Positions 20,425 to 26,661 of a stretch of 64,000 nt of DNA are shown piece after piece. The stretch lies in the NCBI GenBank assembly GCA_965248195.1, contig CBDFIQ010000002.1, positions 2,176,001 through 2,240,000 of the forward strand, written 5' to 3'. The translations under genes were made by a program, and so were the position numbers. The stretch is from Longimicrobiales bacterium (GTDB lineage: Bacteria; Gemmatimonadota; Gemmatimonadetes; Longimicrobiales; Gaopeijiaceae). Under the pieces are notes generated by a model. That model was not told the DNA's origin. It worked only from the letters and a program-made list of their open reading frames with translations, and ran no database searches. Positions within the stretch are counted from its first letter, which is position 1, and every line of letters begins with the position of its first letter.

Positions 20425-23400
20425 TCAGTGATTCGTGCTCATGCTCCGGGCCGCGGGCACGGGTGGGGCCTGGGCCGGAACCGACACCTCCACGTGCCCG
20501 ACCTCTGCCCGCAGACGCCGGAGGTGGTAGCGCACCTCGGACATCGGGTCCGCCTCTCCAGGCACGTCTCGGGGGGCTACCTTCTGGAACTTGGGCAAGG
20601 CTTCCTCCCAGGCGCCGAGAAGCTCTTGGGCCCGCCTCGACCCCGTCCGCTCGTAATGACGCTCGATCATGGTCTTTAGCAACTCGATGTCGTCCGGATG
20701 CACCACGGCTTGCATTTCCACCAGGTCATGGTTCATGCGGGACGGGAGGTCACCGTATTCATCGAGCACGTATGCCATTCCATTCGACATGCCCGCCCCC
20801 AGATTTCGGCCTGTGTCACCGAGGATGACGACGGCCCCACCGGTCATGTATTCGCATCCGTGGTCTCCGACACCCTCCACAACCGCCCGGCCACCCGAGT
20901 TACGTACGGCGAACCGCTCCCCGGCGCCACCGGCGACGAACAGGTCACCGCCCGTCGCACCGTAGAGTACGGTATTCCCCACGAGCGTCGCTTTTTGCTC
21001 CAGGAATCGGGAGCCGGGCGGTGGGCAGACCGTGATTTCTCCCCCGCTCATCCCCTTCGCCACATAGTCGTTGGCCTCACCGATGAGGTTCAGGCACACT
21101 CCATTGGCGAGCCAGGCCCCGAACGACTGTCCCGCCGACCCCCGGAAGGCCAGGTCGATGGATCCTGGTGGCAGTCCGGCGTTCCCATGCACCTGAGCGA
21201 TGCGCCCCGAAATCCGGCCTCCCACCGTACGGTCCCGGTTCAGAATCTCATAGGAGCCCTGGAATGTGCCACCATCCTCGATGGCACTACCGATATCTTT
21301 CAGGATCCGGTCATCCATGGGACGGCCGGGCCGGTCGTTACGTTCCTGGACCACGTGGGCGGGTCCGCCCGACGTCCTCGCGATCATCTTGGAAAGGTCG
21401 ACGCCACGCCAACGGTCACCCTCCTCCGCCTCGATTTGTGTCAGCAGATCGGCCCTGCCGATCACGTCATCGAGCCGCTCATAACCGAGCGTGGCGAGGA
21501 TCTCCCGCACGTCCTCACCCACATGGGTGAGGAACTGGATCACCATCTCCGGCGTGCCGAAATACTTCTCCCTGTACTCTTCGGCCTGCGTCGCGATTCC
21601 CACGGGGCAGGTATTGAGGTGGCACTGGCGCGCCATCTTGCATCCGATCGCGATGAGTGCCGCGGTGCCGAAACCGTAGCGGTCGGCGCCGAGCAGGGCC
21701 GCAACCACGACGTCCCTCCCCGTATGCATGCCCCCGTCGGTACTGAGGATCACCCGGCCGCGAAGCCCATTCATCATGAGCGTCTGCTGAGTCTCCGCCA
21801 GCCCGAGCTCCCAGGGGATACCTGCGTACTTTATCGAGGTGAGCGGTGACGCACCGGTACCGCCGTCCGCCCCACTGATCTGGATGACGTCGGCATAGGC
21901 CTTGGCCACGCCCGCCGCAATCGTGCCTACCCCTTCCGAAGCCACCAACTTCACGATGACGCGGGCGGCCGGATTCACGACCTTGAGGTCGTAGATCAAC
22001 TGGGCGATGTCCTCGATCGAGTAGATGTCGTGGTGTGGCGGCGGAGAGATCAAGGGCGTGCCCGCGGTGACGTGCCGCAACTCGGCGATGTACGCCGAAA
22101 CCTTGTGGCCGGGAAGTTGTCCACCCTCCCCGGGTTTGGCACCCTGGGCGATCTTGATCTCCAGCTCCTTCGCCCCGACGAGGTACGCGGGCGTGACCCC
22201 GAACCGCCCGGAAGCGACCTGCTTCACCGACGAATTCGCATCGAGCTTATCACCACCCGGCGTGTAGCGGCGGGGATCCTCCCCACCCTCGCCGGTGTTG
22301 GCTAGACCGCCTAGCCGGTTCATCGCTCTCGCGAGATCCTCGTGAGCCTCTGGGCTCAGTGCACCCAACGACATAGCTCCGGTCTGGAATCGCCGTATTA
22401 TGGCCTCGACGGGTTCGACTTTATCGAGCCCGATCGGATCGCGGTCGGACGAGAGCTCGAGGAGATCCCGTAAGGCCGTAGGCGGACGGCTATGGACCAG
22501 GTCGCGGTAAGCCCGGTATTCTTCCTCGCCTCCGCCCTGGACTGTCTTGTGCAGAGCGCGCCAGACCTGTGGACTGTTCGCGTGGTAGTCGCCATCCCGC
22601 CGAAACTTGTACCAGCCGCCTCGCTCGAGCTTCTCCGCTGAGTACGCCTGGGTGTGCCGCTCAATCGCGTCCGCCGCGATGTGGCGGAAGCCGATACCGC
22701 CGATGCGTGACCTCGTGGTCGTGAAGCAGCGACGGAGGACCTCGTCACCCAGGCCGAGCGCCTCGAAAATCTGGGCGCCGTGGTAGGAAGAGACCGCGGA
22801 GATGCCCATTTTGGACATGACCTTGAGGATCCCCGCATCGGCCGCCTTCCTGTAGTTTCTGATGACTTCATCGAGTGCCTGGTCGTCGAACTCCCCTGCT
22901 CCGACCAACGCTCCCACGCTCTCGAAGGCGAGGTAGGGACAGATTGCCGAAGCCCCGAAACCGATCAGCGTAGCGAATTGGTGAACATCCCGAGCGTCCC
23001 CGGTGTCGGCGACGATGCTGGCCCTCATCCGGAGACCCTCGCGGATCAGGTGATTGTGCACCGTTGAAACCGCTAAGAGCATCGGAATCGGCGCACGGGC
23101 TTCATCGGTGGAGCGGTCGCTGACCACGAGCGCCTGGCACCCTTCGTCCACTGCGGCCACCGCAGCGGCGCAGAGGTCGTCGAGGGCCCCCTCGAGCCCT
23201 TCGGCACCGTCCTTCACGGGGAAACACGCCTCGAGTGTGGCAACGGAGAATCCCTCGGGCGTCCCTTCCCGAAGCTGCACCAACTCCCCCTCACTCATAA
23301 TCGGGCTCATGAGATGTACGAGCCGGGCAGCCTCTGGGTCCTCCTCCAAAATCGAATGGCGGCGGCCCAGGTAGGTATCGAGCGACATCACGATCTTCTC

Positions 23401-25056
23401 TCGAAGGGAGTCGATCGGTGGGTTGGTGACCTGTGCGAAGCGCTGCCGGAAATAGGTGTACAGGAGGCGGCCGGGTCCGTTCAGCGTGGACGGGGGCGTG
23501 TCGTCACCCATGGAGCCCGTGGGTTCCTTGCCGTCCCGTGCCATGGGTTTGAGGACGTATCCGATCTCCTCTTGAGTGTACCCGTGTAGCGCCTGCAAGC
23601 GAACCAGCTCGGCATCATCGGAATCGGGTCGATACCGCTTCGGGTCGAGCTCGAGGGGAGCGAGATGATGGAGATTTTCGCTCACCCACTGACCGTAAGG
23701 CCGCCGAGCCGCCATTTCGGCCTTGATTTCGTCGTTGTGCAAGAAGTGCCGCCGAGCCGTGTCGACGGCGATCATCTCACCGGGTCCGACCCTTCCCGAC
23801 TCCACGATCTCGCTCAGTGGCAGGTCAGCCAGCCCAACTTCCGAACTCATGATCACCACCCCGTCGGCCGTAACCTGATACCGGGCGGGGCGTAGGCCAT
23901 TACGGTCCATCACGGCGGCGGCAACCGTTCCGTCCGTGAAGGCGACCGCGGCTGGACCGTCCCAAGGCTCCGTGAGGCAGGCGTGATATTCGTAGAACTC
24001 CCGGAGTTGGGGATCCATGTTGGGCATGCTCTCCCACGCCTCCGGGATGAGCATCGCCATCGCGTGGAGCAGGCCGCGGCCAGAGGTCATCAGGAGTTCG
24101 AAAGCCTCGTCCAGGGAGGCCGTGTCAGACCCGATGGGATGGATGACCGGGATCAGATCCTCGAGCTGGTCGCCCCAAAAACTGGACGTGAGCTCGGGTT
24201 CGCGCGCCGACATCCAGTTCCGGTTGCCCAGGAGTGTGTTGATTTCTCCGTTGTGCGCGATCAAGCGGAACGGCTGGGCGAGGGGCCAGGTCGCAAGCGT
24301 ATTGGTGGCAAAACGCTGATGGAAAAGGGCGATCCCGGAAACCGTCCGTTCGTCCGCGAGGTCGGGAAAGAAGCGGGCGAGGTCTGTTGCGACCATGAGA
24401 CCCTTATAAACCACCGTCCGCGCGGACATCGACACGATGTAGCAATCGATGCCTTCTTCCCGGTAACCCGACTCGGCCCGCATCCGAGCGAGGTAGAGCG
24501 CCCGATCGAACTCGGGGCTCGACATGCCCGAGGGCCTCTCGATGAAGAGTTGCTCGATTCCCGGAAGAGATTGCAGGGCCGAGGCGCCAAGTACGGATCG
24601 GTCCGTCGGCACGACTCTCCAGCCAAGGGGCACGATGCCCGTCCGGTCCGCCGCCGCGTCCAGGATGGCACGCGCCCGGTCACGCATTTTCTTTTCTGTG
24701 GGCAAGAAGACCATCGCGAGGGCGAGCCCTGACAGGTCGCCCTCTTCCATACCCATGCCGGCGGCGTCTTCAGCCAACAACTCCTTCGGGACCTGAATCG
24801 TAACGCCCGCACCGTCACCCGAAGCCGCGTCGGCTGAGACCGCGCCCCGGTGCGTGAGGTTCGCGACCGAGCGCACCGCCAGCTCTACGATGCCATGGGT
24901 TCGCTCACCGTCGATCCTGGCTATGAAACCCGTCCCGCAGCCGTCGTGCTCGAAGGCCGGGTTATAAAGAGGCGGCGGGTTCGACGGAGACCAGGCGGCC
25001 CCGGACAGGGGCCCACCGTCCGGTATTCCGTGTCTAGAATCCAACTTCCGAGTCAT
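20425..25056 (-). CDS. gltB: Glutamate synthase large subunit
   Basis: EHDGCGTGF (catalytic Cys), HQRFATNT, HNGEINT, DRNGLRP, QGAKPGEGGQLPGHKV, SPPPHHDIYSIED, CKMARQCHLNTC, GXGXG C-terminal domain. Confidence 0.99.
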   Translation of the reverse strand: MTRKLDSRHGIPDGGPLSGAAWSPSNPPPLYNPAFEHDGCGTGFIARIDGERTHGIVELAVRSVANLTHRGAVSADAASGDGAGVTIQVPKELLAEDAAGMGMEEGDLSGLALAMVFLPTEKKMRDRARAILDAAADRTGIVPLGWRVVPTDRSVLGASALQSLPGIEQLFIERPSGMSSPEFDRALYLARMRAESGYREEGIDCYIVSMSARTVVYKGLMVATDLARFFPDLADERTVSGIALFHQRFATNTLATWPLAQPFRLIAHNGEINTLLGNRNWMSAREPELTSSFWGDQLEDLIPVIHPIGSDTASLDEAFELLMTSGRGLLHAMAMLIPEAWESMPNMDPQLREFYEYHACLTEPWDGPAAVAFTDGTVAAAVMDRNGLRPARYQVTADGVVIMSSEVGLADLPLSEIVESGRVGPGEMIAVDTARRHFLHNDEIKAEMAARRPYGQWVSENLHHLAPLELDPKRYRPDSDDAELVRLQALHGYTQEEIGYVLKPMARDGKEPTGSMGDDTPPSTLNGPGRLLYTYFRQRFAQVTNPPIDSLREKIVMSLDTYLGRRHSILEEDPEAARLVHLMSPIMSEGELVQLREGTPEGFSVATLEACFPVKDGAEGLEGALDDLCAAAVAAVDEGCQALVVSDRSTDEARAPIPMLLAVSTVHNHLIREGLRMRASIVADTGDARDVHQFATLIGFGASAICPYLAFESVGALVGAGEFDDQALDEVIRNYRKAADAGILKVMSKMGISAVSSYHGAQIFEALGLGDEVLRRCFTTTRSRIGGIGFRHIAADAIERHTQAYSAEKLERGGWYKFRRDGDYHANSPQVWRALHKTVQGGGEEEYRAYRDLVHSRPPTALRDLLELSSDRDPIGLDKVEPVEAIIRRFQTGAMSLGALSPEAHEDLARAMNRLGGLANTGEGGEDPRRYTPGGDKLDANSSVKQVASGRFGVTPAYLVGAKELEIKIAQGAKPGEGGQLPGHKVSAYIAELRHVTAGTPLISPPPHHDIYSIEDIAQLIYDLKVVNPAARVIVKLVASEGVGTIAAGVAKAYADVIQISGADGGTGASPLTSIKYAGIPWELGLAETQQTLMMNGLRGRVILSTDGGMHTGRDVVVAALLGADRYGFGTAALIAIGCKMARQCHLNTCPVGIATQAEEYREKYFGTPEMVIQFLTHVGEDVREILATLGYERLDDVIGRADLLTQIEAEEGDRWRGVDLSKMIARTSGGPAHVVQERNDRPGRPMDDRILKDIGSAIEDGGTFQGSYEILNRDRTVGGRISGRIAQVHGNAGLPPGSIDLAFRGSAGQSFGAWLANGVCLNLIGEANDYVAKGMSGGEITVCPPPGSRFLEQKATLVGNTVLYGATGGDLFVAGGAGERFAVRNSGGRAVVEGVGDHGCEYMTGGAVVILGDTGRNLGAGMSNGMAYVLDEYGDLPSRMNHDLVEMQAVVHPDDIELLKTMIERHYERTGSRRAQELLGAWEEALPKFQKVAPRDVPGEADPMSEVRYHLRRLRAEVGHVEVSVPAQAPPVPAARSMSTNH

Positions 25057-25099
25057 ACGTCTCCCGATCTATTGCTCTATTCCCAAACGCTGTGTACCC

Positions 25100-25138
25100 A
25101 AACAAAAAACGGCCTTCCCACACTGGAGAAGGCCGTTC
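25100..25138 (-). terminator. Intrinsic terminator in the gltB 5' leader (attenuator)
   Basis: AACGGCCTTC-TCCAGTGTGG-GAAGGCCGTT stem merging into TTTTTTGTTT, 44 nt upstream of the gltB ATG with no upstream same-strand gene. Confidence 0.85.
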
Positions 25139-25269
25139 GAGGAACCGAAAATACTTGCTCAGTTCACCCGCATGCTTCCCCAACGCGGAGCCCTTTTCCG
25201 GCCTCGCTCAAGAGATTCGGGGCAAGTACGTACTCGCACGCGCGAGTTCGGTGAACGGCGAACGCTCAT
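25100..25269 (-). promoter_or_regulatory. Structured cis-regulatory leader of gltB (candidate riboswitch or peptide attenuator)
   Basis: Several 6-7 bp complementary segments, alternative antiterminator pairings and a 36-codon uORF upstream of the terminator. Confidence 0.6.
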
Positions 25270-25659
25270 CGGATTCTTACCTGAGGCGACCCAATTGCGA
25301 GGACCTACCAGGCACTTTCACTTGCTCCCCATGAGGGCACAGGGCCCCGAAAACTCTGTCCACACTTGCCGATCCCGCCTGCACCGGTGCACCAGCCGCA
25401 CCTGGGCGAGTTACGCGAGGTAACCGACGAGAATAGGACTTTCTTACCAGAACGGCAAGCGCTCCTTGCCCCCCCGTCCCCTCGCTCGTACAATTGCTGC
25501 CGTTCCTCGCGGTTCCAAAAGCCACCTCCCGTCTTCCGTCTTTGACAGCGATGCTTCCCGAAATCCAGTCGCTGTGGAGTTGACCGCCGTGCCCGATCCC
25601 AAATGGATGTACCAAGGGGATGCAGTACCAAGAAGTGCCTCTCAACAGCCTTCTAGAGG

Positions 25660-26661
25660 ATGATGATGACGCATAGGTGGGAAGGGACGTCATTCGTCCC
25701 GTCGATCCTTCTTCTTGCGGTCCTGACTTCATCCGGATGTGCCCCCGGGGACCGTCCTGACATCCTCTCGCTGGCAACGGCGGGCACCGGAGGTGTCTAC
25801 TACGTGCTGGGGGGATCGATCGCGGAGCTCTGGAGCCGCGAGTTGCCGGAGCATGATTTCGTAGCCGAGGTCACGGGCGGCTCAGTCGAGAATCTCAGCC
25901 TACTCCTGGGCGGTGATGTCCACGTGGCCTTCTCTATGGGTACGAACGCCCATGAGGTGTTCTACGCAAGGGGATCTTTTTCGGAGCGGGAGCCGGCGCG
26001 GGTTCTCGCTCTCACTGCGCTCTATCCGAACGTCCTTCACCTGGTCACCGTGGAAGGAACAGGAGTGGAGAGCCTCGTTGACCTCGTGGGGCGACGGGTC
26101 TCCGTAGGAGCGCCAGGGAGTGGGACCGAAGTGGCCGCCCGAACCCTGCTGGAAGGAAACGGGATCGGCTACGACGATTTCCGGCCCCAGCGTCTCAATT
26201 TCAACGAGACTGCTTCTGCGCTCCGGGACGGGAACATAGACGCCGGATTCTTGAGCGCCGGCACCCCTACCAGTGCCCTCATGGACCTGGCTACGGCGCG
26301 GACTATGCGACTCGTTGCGATCGGAGCGACGGAAGTGGAGAACACTGGGGTCTTGGACCCGACCGTGAGTCGCGATTTCTTCCTTCCAGGAACATACCCC
26401 GGCCAGGAAATCGAGGTGGAGACATTGAGTACACCCAACCTCCTCGTGGTCCGCGCCGACATGTCGGAGGAGCTCGTCTACGATCTGATTCAAGCGCTAT
26501 CCGCGGTACAGACGGAGTTAGCTGGCGTGCATCCTGCGGCGCGCCACATCTCGGCGGAGTACACCCTGGACGCTTCTCCCATCCCGCTCCACCCGGGTGC
26601 CGTTCGCTATTTCGTGGAAGCAGGATACGAGGTGCCCGAGCGTCTGATCTTTTCCCCGTGA
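25660..26661 (+). CDS. TAXI-family TRAP transporter solute-binding lipoprotein
   Basis: Lipobox-like SSGC, ATAGTGGVYY, TGGSVEN, VGAPGSGTE, IPLHPGAVRYF. Confidence 0.94.
   Translation: MMMTHRWEGTSFVPSILLLAVLTSSGCAPGDRPDILSLATAGTGGVYYVLGGSIAELWSRELPEHDFVAEVTGGSVENLSLLLGGDVHVAFSMGTNAHEVFYARGSFSEREPARVLALTALYPNVLHLVTVEGTGVESLVDLVGRRVSVGAPGSGTEVAARTLLEGNGIGYDDFRPQRLNFNETASALRDGNIDAGFLSAGTPTSALMDLATARTMRLVAIGATEVENTGVLDPTVSRDFFLPGTYPGQEIEVETLSTPNLLVVRADMSEELVYDLIQALSAVQTELAGVHPAARHISAEYTLDASPIPLHPGAVRYFVEAGYEVPERLIFSP

Follow-up and report, generated by a model that had tools for sequence, protein, structure and literature searches.

A conserved leader with a predicted terminator/antiterminator switch precedes gltB in one genus of Longimicrobiales

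Glutamine (glnA RNA) and ppGpp (ykkC subtype 2a) riboswitches control nitrogen genes through terminators. Classical attenuators of the trpL, hisL and leuL type possess their own promoter, a long leader in which a short open reading frame runs through mutually exclusive hairpins, an intrinsic terminator just 5′ of the biosynthetic gene, and a stop codon at a position where the ribosome, on terminating, would lie over the 5′ strand of the antiterminator. In the Salmonella mgtA and mgtCBR leaders, which are several hundred nucleotides long, RNA structure and translation of a short open reading frame could feed one termination decision; termination there is Rho-dependent, and the signals sensed are Mg2+, proline or ATP. 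The motif gltD (SRC-18-1) of Selenomonadales and Veillonellales is presented, in the part of PMC8632094 that deals with it, as an orphan riboswitch candidate whose proposed ligand is glutamine; it is lineage-restricted, preceded by a promoter, always found directly 5′ of a glutamate synthase gene, and followed by an RBS-occluding hairpin. gltB itself is mentioned in PMC6003355.

The gltB leader described here lies in a window of 64,000 nucleotides (the whole stretch of DNA that was analysed) from the genome of a Longimicrobiales bacterium. With the glutamine and ppGpp riboswitches it has in common its position in the 5′-UTR of a nitrogen-assimilation gene and an expression platform of the terminator type, but its conserved part is far larger than those aptamers, and it has no Rfam match and shows no covariation above shuffles. 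Each of the properties listed above for the trpL, hisL and leuL type has an observed or predicted counterpart in the gltB leader, which differs in being two to three times longer, in having no conserved regulatory codons and reading frames that differ between species, and in joining a weak Shine-Dalgarno sequence and a paired AUG to about 150 nt of conserved RNA ahead of the reading frame. It resembles the Salmonella leaders in length and in the possible joint action of structure and translation, but has no sequence relation to them and ends in an intrinsic terminator. The likeness to the gltD motif (lineage restriction, a preceding promoter or candidate promoter, position directly 5′ of a glutamate synthase gene) is drawn from the description of that motif only, and the two differ in phylum and in expression platform. 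The gltB leader has the architecture of a cis-acting transcription attenuator and matches no known family, and it probably throttles gltB by means of its terminator. No paper describing this leader was found in the literature, in a search that a motif named only in the supplement of PMC5737381 (224 motifs) would escape. The features are as follows, in the direction of transcription.

25453..25458, minus strand: -35-like hexamer TTGCCG of the candidate leader promoter (CTTGC invariant in 22/22)
25430..25435, minus strand: -10-like hexamer TATTCT, 17 nt past the -35 hexamer (alignment conservation)
25100..25424, minus strand: predicted leader RNA of about 325 nt, from the probable start (~25424-25421, placed by promoter spacing) to the end of the U tail
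25364..25411, minus strand: predicted P1 hairpin domain, ACUCGC (25411-25406) with GCAAGU (25369-25364); helix 2, 95.5% of cells paired
25218..25331, minus strand: predicted P2 multi-branch domain (helices 7-10), closing helix 25331-25319 with 25228-25218; hairpins P2a 25313-25279, P2b 25271-25249 and P2c 25246-25233 from the consensus fold
25159..25269, minus strand: uORF, invariant AUG (25269-25267) to UGA (25161-25159), 36 codons here, open in 22/22
25177..25215, minus strand: predicted P4 hairpin, its 3′ strand being the putative switching strand; helix 11, 96.5% of cells paired
25177..25186, minus strand: predicted antiterminator 5′ strand (the P4 3′ strand), pairing with 25129-25120
25138..25170, minus strand: predicted P5 hairpin abutting the terminator, with both uORF stops in its 5′ strand; helix 12, 98.9% of cells paired
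25120..25129, minus strand: predicted antiterminator 3′ strand, made up of the loop and the distal half of the terminator 5′ strand, from truncated folds
25100..25138, minus strand: intrinsic terminator, a stem-loop at 25138-25107 with a U-rich tail reaching 25100 (hairpin scan and folding)
25054..25065, minus strand: Shine-Dalgarno sequence GGGAGA (25065-25060) and gltB ATG (25056-25054)
20425..25056, minus strand: gltB, glutamate synthase large subunit, the presumed controlled gene (Pfam)

The gltB gene carries the GATase_2, Glu_syn_central, Glu_synthase and GXGXG domains of Pfam and is present once per genome in the five genomes checked. Upstream of it, at 25660-26661, lies a divergent gene for a TAXI-type binding protein (Pfam NMT1_3), followed by DctM. 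Both assignments agree with the original prediction, which had been made from the letters of the window and had taken 25100-25269 as the whole element. That interval is too narrow, being the 3′ half of a leader of about 325 nt: the conserved block spans about 25461 to 25100, so that 25269 cannot be the 5′ end of the leader, and is instead the A of an invariant internal AUG.

Matches to the leader occur in 8 of 11 other genomes of the same Longimicrobiales genus, at 83-91% identity, and in none of 29 genomes of other genera. With 13 further homologues recovered from metagenomes, the comparative set comprises 22 sequences, nine of them from genomes (nine species of the one genus), and its alignment has a mean column identity of 78%. 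The leader is single-copy in the genome, and all members of the set precede a gltB start and share its orientation. In two genomes (G009 and G010) it is 83-84% identical to that of the window, yet the sole gltB gene is only 48% identical in protein; the leader thus behaves as a module that stays at gltB when the gene itself is exchanged. A covariance model of 217 positions reaching from P2 to P5 (R1), searched with strict filters against 151 genomes of the family, found the element in one genus only. Two weak extra matches were discarded, one lying inside a 322-aa open reading frame and the other being a 43-nt fragment, and 14 of 27 pattern matches in metagenomes were set aside as chance matches, mostly in apparent coding DNA. 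Conservation among gltB leaders, which the original prediction had called for, was found within one genus (22/22) but not beyond it in the genomes searched, and came with no covariation above the control.

Among the nine genomes, mean pairwise identity is 0.81 in the block from promoter to terminator, 0.34 upstream and 0.41 downstream. Sequence 5′ of CTTGC is unalignable between species; CTTGC itself (alignment columns 3-7) is invariant in all 22 sequences, and in the -10 region T27, A28 and T32 are invariant and T29 and T30 at least 90% conserved. We read the CTTGC and TATTCT boxes as a sigma70-like promoter (25458-25430), on the strength of invariant positions at sigma70 spacing, and from this the gltB gene would be preceded by an untranslated leader of about 325 nt. 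The promoter was not listed by a consensus scan, since it has 8 of 12 matches by hand count against a threshold of 9. RNA-library contigs from relatives cover 25176-25412 of the leader, and three of them cross the terminator into gltB (X4 record 12, 24935-25230; X5 record 18, 24857-25275; X1 record 1, 25025-25175); these bridging contigs come from two studies and from relatives rather than this genome, may include DNA carry-over, and cannot show starts. In the four RNA runs no contig covers 25414-25447. Contig 5′ ends at 25412 and 25385 have unmatched tails and are unusable as start-site evidence, and the greater depth of X1 and X5 contigs over 25210-25345 than downstream is likewise unusable as evidence for premature termination.

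The terminator hairpin (25138-25107) has 13 pairs, 7 of them G-C, and a 6-nt loop, and is followed by six U; its U-rich tail stops at 25100, 44 nt 5′ of the gltB ATG at 25056, as originally predicted. A terminator scan of 1.1 kb gave one site against 0.9 expected in shuffles, so the significance of the hairpin rests not on the site count but on its retention in 22 of 22 homologous leaders. It appears in the minimum-energy fold of all 22 sequences when the stretch from P4 to the terminator is folded, and of 20 when the whole leader is folded. The spacer between the terminator and the Shine-Dalgarno sequence and ATG varies from 44 to 110 nt and differs in sequence (mean identity 0.41), and no conserved promoter-like boxes were seen in it on reading the aligned leaders.

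In the consensus fold, 95.2% of cells pair overall. This high figure is partly circular because these closely related sequences also served to derive the fold. The predicted P2 helices (helices 7-10) lie where the leader is best conserved; 93.6-99.2% of their cells pair, and no pair is double-changed. Five pairs of P4 vary, each on one side only, and in P5, which has a loop of 8-10 nt, both variable 5′-strand positions (G/A) sit opposite U. The closing helix of P1 has one pair that is double-changed in two sequences (AU 19, GU 1, GC 1, CG 1). Double-changed pairs number 3 in all, against 3.3 in shuffles, and the alignment scores 0.101 for covariation against 0.099 when shuffled, with 104 of 500 shuffles reaching the observed value; an aptamer fold supported by covariation was thus not found, in sequences too alike (78% mean column identity) for a fair test. 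With covariation no higher than in shuffles, support for the structure comes from conservation and energetics, and the folding energy of the segment is ordinary (z = -0.85 for 25057-25300 and z = -1.36 for 25098-25424). Two metagenome sequences, L060 and L063, have an additional hairpin inserted 3′ of P2c.

Several helices had been named in the original prediction, and they fare differently in the alignment. The hairpin ACUCGC/GCGAGU is present and has been retained, with 93.6% of cells paired (helix 10). The pairing of GCCGUUC with GAACGGC exists, with 94% of cells preserved, and those of GUUCACC with GGUGAAC and of GAGGCCG with CGGCCUU exist and are mostly preserved, but none of the three shows a change on both sides, and an end-pair mismatch occurs among them in 5 of the 22 sequences. 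The proposed pseudoknot between UACUUGC (25228-25222) and GCAAGUA (25158-25152) holds in the window's own sequence but is not conserved, its central pair being broken in 12 of 22 sequences; the much better-kept partner of UACUUGC is the upstream segment GAGCAAGU at 25331-25319 (helix 7, 99.2% of cells paired). The broader idea, that an upstream segment competes for pairing with the terminator, stands, but the best competitor is the P4 3′ strand and none of the helices that had been named.

When the RNA is cut before the 3′ strand of the terminator, the terminator 5′ strand pairs in the consensus fold with the P4 3′ strand. In single-sequence folds at nascent length this antiterminator (25186-25177 with 25129-25120) is the pairing chosen in 21 of 22 sequences (the remaining one uses the P4 5′ strand), and its gain over a fold with the terminator 5′ strand unpaired is 3.5-11.3 kcal/mol. 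Of its 10 pairs, with 95% of cells paired, 7 vary on one side only and none is double-changed; at alignment positions 388 and 389, in the terminator loop, 21/22 sequences have A or G, and these face two U. By our rough estimate, a 10-bp match allowing G-U pairs would be expected by chance within 300 nt upstream about 0.1-0.2 times per sequence.

Three mutually exclusive helices may compete in the nascent leader: P4, in which 25215-25200 would pair with 25192-25177; the antiterminator, which would enclose P5; and the terminator, 25138-25107 with its U tail. Were P4 closed at its base during the passage of RNA polymerase over 25137-25100, the terminator would form and transcription would stop 44 nt before gltB, whereas with the base of P4 open its 3′ strand would capture the terminator 5′ strand and polymerase would continue into the gene. 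The near-invariant 5′ part (25411-25218), consisting of P1, a short hairpin and the four-way P2 domain, is predicted to stack on P4, and binding of a nitrogen-status signal by this part would hold P4 shut, giving a riboswitch-like OFF switch. The signal would most likely be a small molecule, for example glutamine, glutamate or 2-oxoglutarate. So far a metabolite is indicated neither by a ligand or binding pocket nor by occurrence of the leader in a second gene context.

No described RNA family was found to match the leader. At gathering score, Rfam returned one tRNA only from the whole 64-kb window, which bears out the expectation that the leader is without a known family, and a permissive scan of 24900-25800 returned junk only (E 4.4-7.5). 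The glutamine riboswitch matched neither at gathering score nor, on 24900-25800, at E <=10, and the CGGAAnAGGG segment that had been thought to echo glnA turns out to be a hairpin loop, freely variable among the 22 sequences. Neither ykkC-type riboswitches, including the ppGpp class, nor T-box leaders gave an Rfam match at gathering or permissive score, the latter in agreement with the original prediction. A T-box-like UGGN bulge was rejected for want of a model match; a UGGA bulge would, we presume, suit a U discriminator base. A hammerhead-like arrangement (CCGAUGAG...CGAAC) was also rejected, its core U being replaced by C and no Rfam match being found, as was the PyrR binding site (RF00515), whose 19.4 bits (E 5.4, against a gathering score of 54) come mostly from the terminator hairpin.

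In sister genera the gltB leaders are different but have a common 3′ platform, a hairpin with the P5 word UGAGCUGA followed by a terminator; this word and its partner UCGGYUC recur in gltB leaders of other genera, which open with the layout CTTGC-N17/18-TATGAT, matching that of the candidate promoter in the window. Several types may be told apart: type A, that of the window; type B, found in genera g54 and g83, compact and with a stem tip of variable length; and further types in G071 and G064. None of 18 such loci matched Rfam at E <=1. The type-B model (R2) found nothing in the window's genome, and R1 with filters off found nothing in the gltB leader of G071 (best E 0.2). The genus of G071 is represented by one genome.

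A short open reading frame (uORF) that had been left out of the original prediction runs through the switch region. In all 22 sequences it has 32-42 codons and is closed by either of two invariant UGA triplets, 5 nt apart, and it brings with it an alternative in which the sensor is the ribosome. Its peptide is unconserved, the frames differing between sequences, and its AUG sits in the 5′ strand of P2b and would be paired, with a Shine-Dalgarno sequence that is weak in most sequences of the genus. A three-frame stop count showed the other two frames to be almost as stop-free, and the openness of the frame was accordingly dropped as an argument for coding. Other small open reading frames, including one with its UAA or UAG stop 9-10 nt ahead of the AUG, were rejected, since their frames shift and they have no conserved start.

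We tentatively favour the reading in which the gltB leader is a cis-acting conditional transcription attenuator that senses through the RNA itself, and put its probability somewhat short of even. Conserved, helix-compatible RNA extends over about 150 nt upstream of the uORF AUG and would be superfluous for a plain leader-peptide attenuator. In ribosome-mediated attenuation the same P4, antiterminator and terminator helices would operate with a ribosome on the uORF (25269-25159) as the sensor: an untranslated leader would form P4 and then the terminator, slow progress of the ribosome over the P4 5′ strand would free the P4 3′ strand for the antiterminator, and a ribosome at the stop in P5 would cover the core of the antiterminator 5′ strand, 11-16 nt upstream, and so restore the terminator. 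The invariance of the AUG and of both UGA codons, with a frame open in 22/22, would suit this arrangement, but an open frame is uninformative where the other frames are nearly stop-free, and at least four reading-frame histories yield unrelated peptides past about codon 13, while substitutions within the first 13 codons have, on our own reading of the alignment, no third-position bias. Also in favour, genus g54 shares the ten-letter start context CGAUGAGCGU; 3-5 nt before the AUG of its uORF stands a strong Shine-Dalgarno sequence, GGGAG or AGGAG, the two intact copies are 33 codons long, and the peptide begins M-[STI]-V-L-R-P, two species differing there by three silent changes at third positions. 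In both genera the stop lies directly 5′ of the terminator-proximal hairpin. In the genus of the window the Shine-Dalgarno sequence is mostly weak and the AUG paired in P2b. The codons over the P4 5′ strand include clustered Arg in most sequences and Glu in six (the G004-type frame), both of the glutamate family, but a regulatory-codon cluster conserved throughout was not found, the uORF being Arg-rich in most, Glu-rich in six and neither in others; no amino acid is consistently enriched, and Asn accounts for only 1-2 codons per peptide. The ribosome-mediated reading, which gives the conserved RNA before the AUG no role, is on balance unlikely, though as the main rival it deserves to be taken seriously.

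A trans-acting RNA-binding protein that chose between antiterminator and terminator by binding the 5′ domain or P4/P5 would be served by the near-invariant single-stranded junctions and loops as well as a ligand pocket would, and restriction to one genus and one target per genome is common among dedicated regulators. Pfam annotation of 29 open reading frames over about 4.9-46 kb of the window, however, revealed no RNA-binding regulator, and the CAT_RBD domain was not found in the genome by a search whose controls were positive in 4 of 14 genomes. An ANTAR-domain search gave no match in the genome, nor in any of 14 control genomes. As had been predicted, the hairpins have no paired ANTAR hexaloops (the P5 loop being 8-10 nt), and the layout of an ANTAR target, with tandem hexaloop hairpins, A1/G4 and the second hairpin overlapping the terminator, was not seen by eye, since P5 abuts the terminator. 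No TRAP- or HutP-type arrays of (G/U)AG or UAG repeats were seen on reading, and the PyrR model stays at 19.4 bits against its cut-off of 54; protein-dependent antitermination is judged improbable. Slightly more improbable still is that the unit is a stand-alone sRNA gene or a constitutive leaky terminator, with gltB expressed from its own promoter in the 44-110 nt spacer or through read-through that is unregulated. A unit of about 325 nt running from promoter to terminator would be as highly conserved as many sRNAs are, and the conditional behaviour of the leader is a proposal only, but the unit always adjoins gltB in one orientation (22/22), even after gene exchange, the spacer is the least conserved part, variable in length and lacking conserved promoter-like boxes on reading, the RNA-library contigs of relatives cross the terminator into gltB, and other genera have different leaders in the same place on the same 3′ platform. 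Returning to sensing by the RNA itself, its boldest form would make the 5′ 250 nt or so (P1, P2 and P4) a new, unusually large nitrogen-metabolite aptamer (for glutamine, glutamate or 2-oxoglutarate) that would turn GOGAT synthesis off through termination, one branch of a sensor-swapping set of gltB leaders on a shared platform and a cassette outliving replacement of its gene; this combination we regard as distinctly unlikely.

To our knowledge, glutamate synthase genes have so far been tied only to the glutamine and ppGpp classes and to the orphan gltD candidate. Nothing was found in the literature on the regulation of ammonium assimilation in Gemmatimonadota, and the leader would give this abundant, uncultured marine and soil lineage a cis-acting control point for GOGAT. 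If the RNA itself senses, the leader would add a class of nitrogen-metabolite riboswitch; if the ribosome senses, leader-peptide attenuation would extend to central nitrogen assimilation. Either way, a leader that remains 83-84% identical before gltB genes only 48% identical offers a natural experiment in regulatory modularity.

The 5′ leader of gltB is an unassigned, strongly conserved, gltB-specific element carrying a plausible switch between a long hairpin (P4), an antiterminator and a terminator. The original prediction held that no same-strand gene lies 5′ of gltB and that an intrinsic terminator ends 44 nt before the gltB ATG; both points are borne out, the neighbouring TAXI-type ORF (25660-26661, plus strand) being divergent and the U-rich tail of the terminator ending at 25100. 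The 170 nt originally flagged (25100..25269) is too short, however, as the conserved block in the alignment spans about 360 nt (25461-25100), twice that length.

Features of the gltB locus and its leader, 5′ to 3′ on the minus strand after the divergent neighbour
25660-26661, plus strand: ORF of a TAXI-type NMT1_3 binding protein, then a DctM permease (Pfam); next ORF upstream of gltB
25458-25453, minus strand: −35-like hexamer, CTTGC invariant
25435-25430, minus strand: −10-like TATTCT, 17 nt past the −35; first T, A and last T invariant
25411-25364, minus strand: P1 hairpin domain (RNAalifold)
25348-25334, minus strand: short G-C hairpin (RNAalifold)
25331-25218, minus strand: P2 four-way domain with hairpins P2a, P2b and P2c (RNAalifold)
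25269-25267, minus strand: invariant AUG starting a short reading frame inside the leader (uORF); its A is the first nucleotide of the region originally flagged
25215-25177, minus strand: P4 long hairpin (RNAalifold)
25170-25138, minus strand: P5 hairpin, abutting the terminator (RNAalifold)
25138-25107, minus strand: terminator-like hairpin of 13 pairs (7 G-C) with a loop of 6, then six U (consensus scan)
25056-20425, minus strand: gltB ORF, glutamate synthase large subunit (Pfam)

A DNA search matched the leader in 9 of 41 related genomes, namely the window's own, where it is single-copy, and 8 of the 11 others of its genus (83-91% identity); the three genus genomes without a match are 73-85% complete, and none of the 29 genomes from other genera matched. 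Thirteen of the 27 loci found by a metagenome pattern scan match the leader covariance model (E of 1e-73 or better), and the other 14 were discarded as chance matches. A gltB start lies downstream in all 22 sequences, a second type of the gene included. Across the nine genomes the block averages 0.81 in pairwise identity, as against 0.34 for the 150 nt upstream and 0.41 for the spacer between terminator and ATG. Transcription probably starts near 25424-25421, because columns 1-32 of the block are conserved in the manner of a sigma70 promoter, the species cannot be aligned upstream of it, and a CTTGC-N17/18-TATGAT layout also heads the gltB leaders of other genera. This promoter was not listed by the promoter scan, as it has 8 of 12 consensus matches (counted by hand) against a threshold of 9. 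Back to back with it, and facing the TAXI gene, is a plus-strand promoter-like site (25466-25494, TTGCCC-N17-TACAAT, 9 of 12 matches). Past that site a block at 25544-25574 contains the inverted repeat ACAGCGA...TCGCTGT, is kept in the six of nine genomes that share the neighbour, and may be a second leader, of the TAXI-TRAP transporter.

Attachment to gltB extends to a different gltB. Two relatives of the genus (G009 and G010) match the window's leader at 83-84% identity but its GltB at just 48% (424 residues); in six other genus genomes GltB is 82-87% identical, and gltB was single-copy in all five genomes checked. The leader thus appears to be a module that outlives its gene, either through replacement of the gene behind a retained regulatory cassette or through transfer of the cassette. 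In the same two relatives (loci L008 and L009) the ATG past the terminator begins a second short ORF of 31 codons, and L076 and L077 of genus g54 have a similar one of about 22 codons by reading. At all four loci this ORF starts at a Shine-Dalgarno sequence 3′ of the terminator, and its UGA overlaps the start codon of gltB (ATGGTGA or GGGTGA). The overlap of stop and start suggests translational coupling. In the window, codons homologous to this ORF (25056-24970) belong to gltB itself, where they encode an in-frame N-terminal extension. On the 3′ side of gltB, ccmE and ccmF (cytochrome c maturation; 20238-17762, minus strand) stand in place of gltD, and Pfam detected no glutamate synthase small-subunit gene in the scanned neighbourhood (~4.9-46 kb of the window).

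The leader had been predicted to be unassigned, and Rfam agrees: at gathering thresholds the sole match in the whole window is a tRNA at 1938-2008, and a permissive scan of 24900-25800 gave three matches (E 4.4-7.5), with the glutamine, ykkC/ppGpp and T-box models absent. The only one of these inside the leader, a PyrR site, was rejected, as it scored 19.4 bits where the cut-off is 54 and was mostly aligned with the terminator. No description was found in the literature searched, a comparison that stood apart from the 224-motif supplement of PMC5737381; the closest published concept is the gltD orphan motif of Negativicutes (PMC8632094).

Folding of the 22 sequences with RNAalifold from the putative transcription start gave standard pairs in 95.2% of 2186 alignment cells, as opposed to 28-50% when partners were slid. 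Covariation was not above shuffles (both-side changes in 3 of 100 pairs vs 3.3; a score of 0.101 matched by 104 of 500 shuffles), because the sequences are too alike; the data accord with the predicted fold but do not prove it. Nor is the window's own leader unusual in folding energy (z −1.36; z −0.85 for the region originally flagged). Most of the complementarities first proposed are real, as is the terminator. GCCGUUC with GAACGGC is paired in 94% of cells but shows no double change and has an A-C mismatch at the end pair in 5 of 22 sequences; GUUCACC with GGUGAAC is kept, with five C-A mismatches; GAGGCCG with CGGCCUU is invariant and hence uninformative. The proposed pseudoknot of UACUUGC with GCAAGUA is not conserved, its central pair being broken in 12 of 22. 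UACUUGC instead has an upstream partner, GAGCAAGU, with which it closes P2 (99.2% of cells paired). Two metagenome contigs (L060 and L063) carry an 18-nt insertion (alignment A4, columns 262-279) that duplicates the small ACUCGC/GCGAGU-type hairpin 3′ of P2c and extends the uORF in frame to 42 codons.

The case for the terminator rests on its conservation, since the 1.1 kb scanned contains one terminator-like site and shuffles contain 0.9. Its hairpin, 3′ strand included, is in the minimum-energy fold of 22/22 sequences folded from P4 to the terminator and of 20/22 whole leaders. When the alignment was cut immediately 5′ of the terminator's 3′ strand, to represent nascent RNA, 25129-25120 (terminator 5′ strand and loop) paired with 25186-25177 (P4 3′ strand), enclosing P5, and the P4 5′ strand reverted to a small local hairpin. 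In single-sequence folds the P4 3′ strand is chosen in 21 of 22, the exception (G004) using the P4 5′ strand, and this antiterminator fold is 3.5-11.3 kcal/mol better than one with the terminator 5′ strand free. Pairing holds in 95% of cells over its ten pairs, of which seven vary on one side only and none shows a double change in the 22 sequences. In 21 of the 22 the terminator-loop positions that face two U hold A or G. A 10-bp match with G-U allowed is, by rough estimate, not very rare by chance. Because the cut fold favours the antiterminator and the full-length fold returns the terminator, P4, antiterminator and terminator would be three mutually exclusive helices with the logic of a classical attenuator. 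On these models the antiterminator is a better switch than the helices first proposed.

The leader is probably a cis-acting transcription attenuator of gltB; that it is instead a stand-alone sRNA or an unregulated damper is quite improbable. Contigs from four metatranscriptome runs sharing words with this stretch cover the leader; they are mostly 90-99% alike and hence largely from relatives. Three cross the terminator into the coding region (run X4, 24935-25230; X5, 24857-25275; X1, 25025-25175), with ends not readable from the contigs and DNA carry-over possible.

What the attenuator senses is a more tentative matter: direct sensing of a nitrogen-status signal by the RNA itself is the favoured reading, at somewhat less than even odds. 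Attenuation mediated by a ribosome translating the uORF is the main rival and somewhat less likely. The frame is uninterrupted in 22/22 sequences (32-42 codons) and ends at one of two invariant UGA in the P5 5′ strand, 23-29 nt 5′ of the terminator stem; a ribosome positioned at this stop would mask the antiterminator core, which lies 11-16 nt upstream. Genus g54 (GltB 67-70% identical) has the same ten-letter start context and a strong GGGAG or AGGAG Shine-Dalgarno; the two intact copies of its ORF are 33 codons long, with an N-terminus preserved by silent substitutions. Against translation, frames differ between species through indels, leaving peptides unrelated beyond roughly codon 13; stops are almost as scarce in the two alternative frames; asparagine codons are not enriched, at 1-2 per peptide; substitutions show no third-position bias (by reading); and the AUG is paired in P2b, with a weak Shine-Dalgarno in most sequences. 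Control by a protein antiterminator is improbable: Pfam revealed no RNA-binding regulator among 29 ORFs (~4.9-46 kb of the window), and the CAT_RBD domain was not found in the genome by a search whose controls worked, whereas in the ANTAR-domain search the controls gave no signal either.

The gltB gene itself is patchily distributed: an N-terminal query matched in 15 of 61 family genomes, and at the level of the order 20 of 401 genomes have a match with E ≤ 1e-80. Long gltB leaders of their own, with a terminator-like hairpin near the start and no Rfam match, occur in G071, G064, g54 and g83, and no such leader is present in G153, the closest orthologue outside the genus (73% identical). Those of G064 (L026) and G071 (L019) are two further unrelated leaders of ~300 nt, each preceded by a TTGCAT/TATGAT-like promoter and closed by a strong terminator 20-40 nt 5′ of the start. 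In g54 (L073, L076, L077) and g83 (L074, L075, L078, L080, L081, L091, L092, L096) a compact element of 90-130 nt, type B, lies just past the gltB promoter. GCGG pairs with CCGC in its outer helix (GCAG with CUGC in g54) and CCUCCUC with GAGGA in an inner stem, whose tip measures 0 to about 45 nt; highly conserved single-stranded words follow, and in 4 of the 15 predicted pairs both partners change. Among 151 family genomes the matches of its model are confined to g54 and g83, with one per genome, always at gltB; the window's genome has no match, and two g83 genomes (L020, L079) lack the element, which looks like a separate orphan riboswitch candidate. Compared with L076 and L077, L073 (G168, g54) has lost ~115 nt, and with them the uORF end, the terminator and the second short ORF; its leader runs directly into the gltB region as a natural terminator-less variant. 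Common to the window's leader and those of the other genera are a UGAGCUGA ... UCGGYUC hairpin and the terminator-like hairpin that follows it, and these shared 3′ hairpins may be read as a common expression platform on which the upstream parts have been exchanged.
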